In this document: positions 54,751-56,505 of the stretch, one piece after another
Position numbering within the stretch: position 1 is the first letter of the stretch
Layout of the letters: every line of letters begins with the position of its first letter
Assembly (NCBI RefSeq): GCF_013167455.1
Contig: NZ_CP038328.1
Reading direction: 5' to 3' (one strand)
Source: Escherichia coli O157:H7
GTDB lineage: Bacteria > Pseudomonadota > Gammaproteobacteria > Enterobacterales > Enterobacteriaceae
DNA: 64,000 bases
Notes under the pieces: generated by a model
The model's input: the letters and a program-made list of their open reading frames with translations, nothing else
The model's database searches: none
Told to the model about the DNA's origin: nothing
Position numbers and translations under genes: made by a program

Positions 54751-56505
54751 TTATGCAGTGATAGTTTTTTTCTTCCAGCCAAATTTTTCTATTGCTATAC
54801 GTAAATTTTCCGGAGGATTTAGTGTATTTAAACGCTGTTGGTCAATAAATGGCGATACATTAACCTCCGATTTCAAGATAGTTTGCATCATTCTAAACCT
54901 AAGTTTTAATTCATTATTAAGTTTTTCTTCAATAACATCTTTTGGTTGATTTTTCATAATCTCTTCATTAGACTCTTTATTATTAAAATTATACCCTAAC
55001 TTATCAAAATAAATCTTTTCATCCTCATAGCTCTTAAGTAACCGAGGGAAGTACCAATTAATCATCTCAGTGTTTTTCATAAAAAAATCATTCATAAAAA
55101 TATCATTAACTAAAATACTGACAGGTACTTTATTAAATAGTGACTCAACATTATTAAATATTCTTTGTATTAAATATGTTTTTTCTCGATTGCTTAAGTT
55201 AAAATCATTGACATATACAACCAACTTTTTCCAAATCAACTCCTGTAATTCAGGGCTATTTTTATAGGGTTCTTTATCGAGATTGAAAAATAATGTCTCA
55301 GCTACTTTAGACTGATCGCGACGAAAATTAATATGATTTATTACGGAGCATGCATGCTCTATCTTTGCAGAATCATCAAAATATTGCATGCTTTTATTAA
55401 AACACCACTCCAGTATTTTTACATCATTATTATATGGCAATTCTAAAAAAGTCATCAACATCGAATGGATGACCGGTGTAAGATTAACCTTTGCATCATC
55501 TAAGGATTCAATAAGAATATGAGACAGGTTAATCATGATGTCATTAATTTCATTGTTACCTTCTTTGTCATTATCAATTCCGTGATCATTTAATTCGTAG
55601 AGCTTATCTATTTCTTCAAGTATACCATTTTCGCCCAGTAAGTATGAAATCGATTCACTACATACATGAGGCATTAATAGCAGATGTTCGTTCCTTATTG
55701 CTAATAATGCATTATTCAATGATTTTTCTAATAAATCCGTAATCGTAAAATCAACTGAACCTTTACAACTCACCTGCGAATTTTTTAAGTCCTGCGAGTT
55801 ATTTAACTCCTGCGAATTATTTAACTCCTGCGAATTATTTAACTCCTGCGAATTATTTAACTCCTGTATATTATTTAACTTCTGTATATTATTTAACTTC
55901 TGTAGATTATTTAACTTCTGTAGATTATTTAACTTCTGATGATTATTTAATAGACGAGCTATTTCCTTGTTAGCTTCGCGTTGGTAACACGCCAGAACCT
56001 TGTTAGTAATCAGGTGTAATGAACTCTCATCTTTTCTTTCAAAGGACTTTCTTTCATAACGGTTAGTCGAACCATCAGGTTGTGGAAATATAATGGCTGT
56101 ATGTCCTTGACGAGTCCCCATAGTAGTAATAGTGGAAAGTGAAATTTCTATAATCACCTTGGGTGAATCCGCTCGTTCCCCTTCAGGATTATTCATAACA
56201 AACTTCATTATCTCACTGCCATCATTATTTTTGATATAAGATGAGGACTCAATATGAGCCATCATATTTCTTCCCGCTTCGTTGGAGCGTTTGCTAAAAT
56301 CCACATAACCCAGGGTAAATATTTTTACCAAAAACTCCAAAAATGTCTTAGGATTAAGGATATTTCTTGTGTTATCCTGCCCCCCGGCATTACGGGCAAA
56401 ATTATTCATTCCAACACGCCAGGTATTTAAAACTTCACTTTTTTGTTTAAAATTGTCGGCTAATGTAATGTGTTGAGAATAATTCAAATCTGATATTTTG
56501 CTCAT
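54751..56505 (-). CDS. yjgL: Uncharacterised protein YjgL-like (584 aa) with internal hexapeptide tandem repeats
   Basis: Track ORF; AT-rich; assignment by position between argI and tabA (memory). Confidence 0.65.
   Translation of the reverse strand: MSKISDLNYSQHITLADNFKQKSEVLNTWRVGMNNFARNAGGQDNTRNILNPKTFLEFLVKIFTLGYVDFSKRSNEAGRNMMAHIESSSYIKNNDGSEIMKFVMNNPEGERADSPKVIIEISLSTITTMGTRQGHTAIIFPQPDGSTNRYERKSFERKDESSLHLITNKVLACYQREANKEIARLLNNHQKLNNLQKLNNLQKLNNIQKLNNIQELNNSQELNNSQELNNSQELNNSQDLKNSQVSCKGSVDFTITDLLEKSLNNALLAIRNEHLLLMPHVCSESISYLLGENGILEEIDKLYELNDHGIDNDKEGNNEINDIMINLSHILIESLDDAKVNLTPVIHSMLMTFLELPYNNDVKILEWCFNKSMQYFDDSAKIEHACSVINHINFRRDQSKVAETLFFNLDKEPYKNSPELQELIWKKLVVYVNDFNLSNREKTYLIQRIFNNVESLFNKVPVSILVNDIFMNDFFMKNTEMINWYFPRLLKSYEDEKIYFDKLGYNFNNKESNEEIMKNQPKDVIEEKLNNELKLRFRMMQTILKSEVNVSPFIDQQRLNTLNPPENLRIAIEKFGWKKKTITA
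55770..55950. repeat. Intragenic 18-bp tandem repeat (~10 copies, two subtypes) encoding (K/E)LNN(L/I/S)Q hexapeptides
   Basis: AACTCCTGCGAATTATTT and AACTTCTGTAGATTATTT units read directly in the sequence. Confidence 0.85.

Follow-up and report, generated by a model that had tools for sequence, protein, structure and literature searches.

Within the 64,000-nucleotide stretch of Escherichia coli O157:H7 DNA analysed here (contig NZ_CP038328.1 of assembly GCF_013167455.1, called the window below), the gene yjgL carries an array of ten in-frame 18-bp tandem repeat units, each of which encodes a hexapeptide. The array is a variable-number tandem repeat (VNTR) used in multiple-locus VNTR analysis (MLVA) of E. 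coli under the names VNTR-34, O157-34, Vhec2, TR6 and CVN002, and its detection rediscovers a typing marker that has been routinely used since 2003. That the array is this marker, that it is polymorphic and how it changes at the level of single units were observed directly. Taken jointly, it is very probable that the array is this known VNTR, that it changes by slippage of whole units, and that it encodes a flexible linker whose length varies in a near-neutral way.

Structure of the 18-bp array

Tandem Repeats Finder (TRF) reports a single array at 55773..55950, with a period of 18, 9.9 copies, 93% matches, zero indels and a score of 202. In the frame of yjgL, an open reading frame (ORF) on the minus strand, the whole array occupies 55774..55953 (minus strand), as placed by TRF, unit decomposition, shuffle control and primer mapping, and its ten hexapeptide units run from 55953 down to 55774 and form residues 185-244 of YjgL. 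Exact self-matches at a lag of 18 reach 50 nt in the window, whereas shuffling the ORF 2,000 times each by bases and by codons gave at most 11 and 13 nt, respectively, and the array is far beyond chance.

The units are coded here as H (LLNNHQ), L (KLNNLQ), I (KLNNIQ), S (ELNNSQ), s (the silent ELNNSQ variant) and D (DLKNSQ), and the window array is composed, in order, of one LLNNHQ, two KLNNLQ, two KLNNIQ, four ELNNSQ and one DLKNSQ unit, all encoded on the minus strand. The first unit, H (CTATTAAATAATCATCAG, 55936..55953), is degenerate; it is constant across all O157-type alleles and is the sole unit of the one-unit allele described below. It is followed by run L, made of two identical AAGTTAAATAATCTACAG units (55900..55935) and present in 1-4 copies among O157-type alleles, by run I, made of two identical AAGTTAAATAATATACAG units (55864..55899) and present in 2-3 copies, and by run S, made of three identical GAGTTAAATAATTCGCAG units (55810..55863) and present in 1-4 copies, with exact matches to synthetic alleles. 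Unit decomposition places two invariant units at the end of the array (55774..55809): s (GAGTTAAATAACTCGCAG), which is the fourth ELNNSQ unit and has a silent T>C change, and D (GACTTAAAAAATTCGCAG).

The sequence-only reading of this DNA had described about ten perfect 18-bp units of two sequence subtypes, in the coding frame, at 55770-55950. Ten in-frame units are borne out both by the TRF copy number and by reading the frame. The position locates the array correctly, except that the in-frame array extends to 55953 and not 55950. Perfect repetition holds for the internal runs and not for the whole array, with its 93% match, and the two subtypes give way to three internal DNA subtypes, to which a silent variant and a degenerate unit at each end are added.

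Identity with MLVA typing loci

The 18-bp MLVA locus of O157 was named Vhec2 (Lindstedt 2003), TR6 (Noller 2003), O157-34 (Keys 2005) and VNTR-34 (PulseNet) (PMC3321953), the PulseNet scheme being also attributed to Hyytia-Trees 2006; it lies within ORF Z5865 of strain EDL933, according to the label in Table 1 of PMC3321953. The primer and locus data used here were drawn from later open papers (PMC3321953, PMC8143711). The PulseNet reverse primer of VNTR-34 maps to 55762..55793 on the plus strand and the forward primer to 55978..56004 on the minus strand (sequences from Table A1 of PMC3321953), in both cases with 2 mismatches, one per primer end, and together they delimit an amplicon of 243 bp (55762..56004). 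Each of these primers has one match in the 64-kb window and zero matches in 100 shuffles. The primers of CVN002, a generic E. coli MLVA locus with an 18-bp unit and an offset of 272 bp (PMC8143711), match without mismatches at 55631..55651 (reverse primer, plus strand; Table 1 of PMC8143711) and 56043..56064 (forward primer, minus strand; PMC8143711). The resulting amplicon of 434 bp gives, by the published formula (PMC8143711), (434-272)/18 = 9.0 repeats.

The window array has the primer pair of VNTR-34, an 18-bp unit inside an ORF and a copy number that varies within O157, and it has equally the primer pair, the 18-bp unit and the 272-bp offset of CVN002. The VNTR-34 and CVN002 primers both bracket the array uniquely, and it is already known under all five names. 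It is the same locus, with no difference, as that of Lindstedt 2003, Noller 2003, Keys 2005 and PulseNet, and as the CVN002 locus of Lindstedt 2007 and Lobersli 2012. Published VNTR-34 repeat counts rest on fixed offsets and rounding and may differ by one or two from the present count of ten.

Variation at this locus has been described repeatedly. Among 202 German O157 isolates, VNTR-34 ranged from 4 to 12 repeats, with 8 alleles and a diversity index of 0.66 (PMC3321953). Other reports give D = 0.62 with point-mutated units in Argentine isolates (PMC3768571) and clade-specific medians of 12 versus 9 within O157 (PMC10062581). Published alleles of CVN002 include 0 (for example in ST131), 1, 3, 8, 10 and 18 (PMC3407997). 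Alleles 0, 1, 3, 8 and 10 of this series mirror the absent, one-, three- and 8-13-unit yjgL alleles found here, and the null allele corresponds to lineages without yjgL, such as most of phylogroup B2.

Copy number across E. coli genomes

The sequence-only reading had predicted that the array changes copy number between strains and makes the protein length-polymorphic, and had proposed a comparison of copy number across E. coli genomes as the check. The yjgL region is present in 4,744 of 5,426 complete E. coli genomes, and copy number is clearly not invariant, with 1-13 units across E. coli and 8-13 units in O157-type genomes. Units were counted in fifteen fetched alleles and in the window. One unit is found in JX21CE35, three in PK6, Ecol_316 and G4/9, eight in JNE120442 and 28RC1, nine in 21B8 and SCEC020007, ten in the window, eleven in ECP17-1298, GF4-3 and MB50, twelve in DETEC-E1005 and FORC_044, and thirteen in K-12 and F7508. 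In 120 database proteins the number of units ranges from 1 to 10, the starting position of the array is almost always the same, and the commonest form has three units (LLNIPQ ELNNSQ DLNNSQ). The protein is length-polymorphic as predicted; all changes are of whole 18-bp units, and the lengths of database YjgL proteins accordingly form series in steps of 6 residues.

For O157-type alleles, roughly 325 of which occur among the 5,426 complete genomes, those at least 99% identical to a query with a given number of units were counted. One 18-bp gap lowers the identity to about 97.7%, and therefore each count represents alleles of that length. Eight units are found in 11 complete genomes, nine in 137, ten in 54, eleven in 68, twelve in 27 and thirteen in 4. 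The additional BLAST "places per genome", which become more numerous the more units the query has, are taken as offset self-alignments within the array and not as paralogs.

Pattern of change and mechanism

The O157-type alleles differ in the composition of their internal runs. Alleles of eight units are HLLIISsD and HLIISSsD, that of nine is HLLIISSsD, that of ten, the window allele, is HLLIISSSsD, that of eleven is HLLLIISSSsD, those of twelve are HLLLIIISSSsD and HLLLIISSSSsD, and that of thirteen is HLLLLIISSSSsD. The L, I and S runs change independently of each other, while the degenerate end units are constant. Size homoplasy is present, as there are two distinct alleles of eight units and two of twelve. 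Outside the O157 type, other units form such runs of identical copies, for instance GLNNSQ x3 in one lineage and DLNDSQ x3 in a second.

Whole 18-bp units are gained and lost, most likely by replication slippage between identical adjacent units, with unequal exchange between sister copies as a possible contributor. Slippage is favoured because the whole-unit changes sit in runs of identical units. The slipped-strand mispairing proposed by the sequence-only reading fits this pattern of changes, from which the mechanism is inferred. The K-12 allele has 13 units, none of which is identical to its neighbour, and the K-12-type allele is uniform in length, with 362 genomes at 99% identity or more versus 26 at 95-99%. 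The contrast in stability between K-12 and O157 would fit slippage that depends on the purity of the repeat.

Two points count against this account of the mechanism. The contrast of K-12 with O157 is confounded, as K-12-type genomes are mostly recent laboratory derivatives, and sequence data cannot separate slippage from RecA-dependent unequal exchange, the mutation events themselves being unobserved. A measured per-generation mutation rate for the VNTR-34 locus was not found in the literature.

The main source of the length changes might instead be misaligned arrays that undergo RecA-dependent unequal recombination or gene conversion, and not polymerase slippage. Arrays reach 234 bp, with lag-18 identity over as many as 50 nt, and the mosaic yjgL alleles imply that recombination acts at the locus. 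Between closely related O157-type alleles, however, the usual difference is one unit within a short perfect run of 36-72 bp, and the end units and flanks are unchanged. Runs of 36-72 bp are at or below the length usually required for efficient RecA-dependent exchange. Recombination as the main source of the length changes is judged unlikely on this balance.

As to the mosaic structure itself, the alleles fall into two C-terminal sequence classes, which share only about 50% identity from about residue 470 (alignment A1). A second small length polymorphism is seen in some three-unit alleles (L004, P0102), which have a 10-residue insertion, KDFSCDQSKI, near residue 405 that resembles a tandem duplication. 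A second repeat within yjgL, imperfect, with a 15-bp unit and 2.1-2.4 copies, lies at 55076..55115 and encodes NDIFM/NDFFM in the C-terminal part of YjgL; length variation of this repeat was not seen in the YjgL alignment.

Reading frame and gene decay

A contingency switch that turns yjgL on and off could be suspected, given that phase variation classically acts through intragenic tandem repeats and that pseudogenes are common among yjgL alleles. The unit of 18 nt is a multiple of 3, and all 12 of the 12 arrays with both ends located are exact multiples of 18 nt, so that every examined array is in frame; the array is not the frame-shifting repeat of a phase-variable contingency locus. Five of the twelve sampled non-window alleles are annotated as pseudogenes with a frameshift or internal stop, namely those of PK6 (L002), G4/9 (L005), JNE120442 (L008), SCEC020007 (L010) and MB50 (L011). 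The five inactivating lesions are all outside the array, with first stops after residues 28, 253, 439, 473 and 546. Frame-shift phase variation was excluded on these two grounds, arrays that are multiples of 18 nt and lesions outside them, and a switch of this kind has virtually no chance of being correct. As 18 is a multiple of 3, the effect at the protein level is limited to a change in length, of six residues a step. The different positions of the lesions in the sampled alleles suggest that yjgL has decayed repeatedly and independently.

The encoded segment

The 60-residue array is 57% Asn+Gln+Ser, compared with 21% in the rest of YjgL. An AlphaFold2 (AF2) model of YjgL, for which the alignment was shallow (21 rows, almost exclusively E. 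coli), has a mean predicted local distance difference test (pLDDT) score of 55.9 and is usable for the N-terminal domain only, plus a weak hint of disorder in the array. In this model residues 50-180 form an alpha/beta N-terminal domain with pLDDT 70-88, the repeat array (residues 185-244) has the lowest values of the model, 21-47, and is not confidently predicted, and the region after residue 244 is all helical with moderate pLDDT. Placed between the alpha/beta domain and the helical region, the Asn/Gln/Ser-rich array is a probably flexible segment, and unit changes would merely lengthen or shorten this linker by six residues each. The array is probably a flexible, low-complexity linker, with a length that would be free to drift.

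A period of six residues, with Leu always in the same place, bears a superficial likeness to the bacterial transferase hexapeptide repeat, and AF2 draws the array as a helix up to residue 214. Such features would suit a structured repeat, either a hexapeptide left-handed beta-helix or a coiled coil, with a geometry that limits the number of copies. The Pfam Hexapep profile (PF00132) has no match on YjgL even at E<=10, and the array does not belong to the transferase hexapeptide/left-handed beta-helix family. AF2 shows no strands in the array, where pLDDT is 21-47, and the ELNNSQ units have one hydrophobic residue per six. Copy numbers of 1, 3, 4, 5, 6, 7, 8, 9, 10, 11, 12 and 13 are found, with no preference for multiples of three. 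A left-handed beta-helix is unlikely because of the missing Hexapep match and the lack of a multiple-of-three preference, and for a structured repeat of either type we see only the slightest chance.

Among other domains considered, a match to the Pfam SopA central domain (PF13981) at residues 326-397 is below threshold, with 17.1 bits versus a cut-off of 27 (E = 0.0078). A Foldseek search of the AF2 model against the PDB gave a best E of 0.09 and nothing to SopA or NleL, a weak negative given the low confidence of the model. A SopA/NleL-like domain order, with a repeat domain followed by the SopA central domain, has no support, the Pfam match being below the cut-off and the Foldseek search without a significant match. 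The NCBIfam scan of YjgL found no family, and the RefSeq name "DNA-binding protein", which is attached to many alleles, has no backing from any NCBIfam model found. A comparison of YjgL with PDB sequences found nothing real; family-profile matches to arginyl-tRNA synthetase in that set are an artefact of P0171, a chimeric ArgS-YjgL row in alignment A1. In P0171, a predicted protein of 125 residues, a first half from the C-terminus of arginyl-tRNA synthetase is joined to a second half with 34% identity to residues 369-433 of YjgL, which hints at a distant yjgL-like fragment beside argS in some genome.

The yjgL gene and its family

The yjgL ORF occupies 54751..56505 on the minus strand and encodes 584 residues; it is the ortholog of Shigella icaR (PMC9241512). 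A 780-nt query across the array matches O157:H7 strain Rafaela_II of E. coli at 100% identity, and the gene is annotated there as yjgL; the window YjgL is 84% identical to that of K-12. Its neighbours in the window are an ornithine carbamoyltransferase gene (53690..54694, plus strand), tabA/yjgK (56628..57089, minus strand), the TetR-type regulator gene bdcR, and bdcA. Thirteen fetched E. coli loci were read into their flanks, and the gene order around yjgL matches that of the window in these. The gene name given by the sequence-only reading is correct, as identical sequence is so annotated in O157:H7 records and the context is argI/argF-yjgL-tabA-bdcR. The gene is an AT-rich island, with a GC fraction of 0.27-0.38 compared with about 0.5 in the flanks. 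Sequence orthology and the location between ornithine carbamoyltransferase and tabA-bdcR place the protein in the YjgL/IcaR family.

An exhaustive HMMER search of 1.84 billion representatives found one full-length YjgL cluster, from E. coli, together with fragments, and no distant full-length homologs. P0169 and P0178, which are unrelated N/D/E-rich repeat proteins, were dismissed as low-complexity matches, and exact-sequence cluster look-ups with four YjgL alleles had no match and were uninformative. The family appears, from the HMMER search, to be essentially an Escherichia/Shigella orphan.

A divergent syntenic ortholog is present in GCA_028622315.1 (CP117580.1; L016:4001-5590), between tabA and the ornithine carbamoyltransferase gene. 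It is about 50% identical to YjgL in the N-terminal domain, and stops split the gene into three ORFs. This ortholog has no 18-bp array and only one EINNLN-like remnant, so the array looks like an expansion within E. coli.

IcaR orthology, expression and possible selection on array length

The ortholog of YjgL in Shigella flexneri is IcaR (gem3), which is regulated by MxiE/IpgC and secreted through the type III pathway (PMC9241512). The Shigella gene is in the same argF/argI-tabA-bdcR locus as yjgL. Insertion sequence (IS) elements have cut IcaR short at its C-terminus, while the window copy keeps its full length of 584 residues, and type III secretion was demonstrated experimentally for the truncated Shigella protein only. 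In O157:H7 ATCC 43888 and in MG1655, yjgL is silent unless MxiE and IpgC are supplied, and its product is then about 70 kDa; EivF and YgeG, the homologs from the E. coli type III secretion system 2 (ETT2), fail to activate yjgL, and the authors raise the possibility that these genes are "fossils" (PMC9241512).

The same study reports a conserved MxiE box together with induction in O157:H7 ATCC 43888, the sequence of the box being given in a figure only (PMC9241512). The MxiE-box consensus GTATCGTTTTTTTANAG has zero matches at three or fewer mismatches in the window. Upstream of yjgL, at 56540..56580 on the minus strand, AGAGCGTTTTTTGATAT is a look-alike of this consensus found by eye, with 5 mismatches.

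The variation in array length is most likely selectively near-neutral. The evidence counted for a linker and for neutrality comprises the richness in Asn, Gln and Ser, the lowest pLDDT of the model, the silent gene, the frequent pseudogenes and the broken, array-less outgroup ortholog. Three considerations pull the other way. Many lineages, including O157:H7, keep a full-length ORF, and several lineages expanded the array independently, both of which would also fit selection on the protein; and the low pLDDT of the array is weak evidence of disorder in view of the shallow alignment behind the model.

If array length were functional, it could tune the spacing between an N-terminal domain with the secretion signal and the C-terminal domain, or vary an exposed epitope, and selection would drive the differences between lineages. 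Secretion of IcaR by the Shigella type III secretion apparatus is compatible with such a role, as are the independent expansion of separate units in separate lineages, the intact and expressible ORF (about 70 kDa) retained by O157:H7 and K-12, and the clade-stable copy number within O157, although a slow neutral clock also predicts clade stability. The gene is, however, silent without MxiE/IpgC, which are absent from E. coli, and EivF/YgeG are inactive on it; pseudogenes are frequent, Shigella IcaR has lost its C-terminus, the authors of PMC9241512 suggested "fossil" genes, and intact genes exist with anything from 1 to 13 units. A functional array length is quite improbable in this light.

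In its strongest form, this reading would make the array a module under selection that tunes the length of a cryptic effector-like protein, and thereby an adaptive knob and not a neutral marker. If this were true, lineages such as O157:H7 would keep "young", perfectly homogeneous runs since a longer or adjustable N/Q-rich spacer alters the secretion or action of YjgL/IcaR, an effect that would apply once an activator of the MxiE/IpgC type is present. Length tuning has little support because yjgL is normally silent and often decayed, and this form is highly improbable.

Other repeats in the window

Two further tandem repeats were observed. An in-frame 21-bp repeat of 2.4 copies at 31936..31986 encodes NNNKDQM NNNKDQM within ORF 31441..32214 (plus strand), which has 257 residues and a signal-peptide-like N-terminus; it may be another small length-polymorphic coding repeat. 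An intergenic array of 96-bp units at 47473..47768, with 3.1 copies, 93% match and a TRF score of 504, lies between ORFs 45956..47467 and 47821..48264, and its palindromic units are similar in look to repetitive extragenic palindromic (REP) or bacterial interspersed mosaic element (BIME) sequences.

Significance of the yjgL array

The yjgL array resembles the in-frame coding minisatellites reviewed by van Belkum et al. 1998 in the in-frame gain and loss of whole units, in homogeneous runs, within a low-complexity segment. The well-studied cases are usually expressed surface or secreted proteins under immune selection, whereas yjgL is normally silent and often decayed. The practical value of the array has already been realised, as it has been for about twenty years a standard locus of O157:H7 outbreak typing and of generic E. 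coli MLVA. The present analysis adds a unit-level map of the runs that expand and contract, the allele spectrum from 5,426 complete genomes, and the size homoplasy, which matters where fragment size is read as identity. It also links the typing marker to the yjgL/icaR literature. The feature is an ordinary one, and the current understanding of it is unchanged by these findings.

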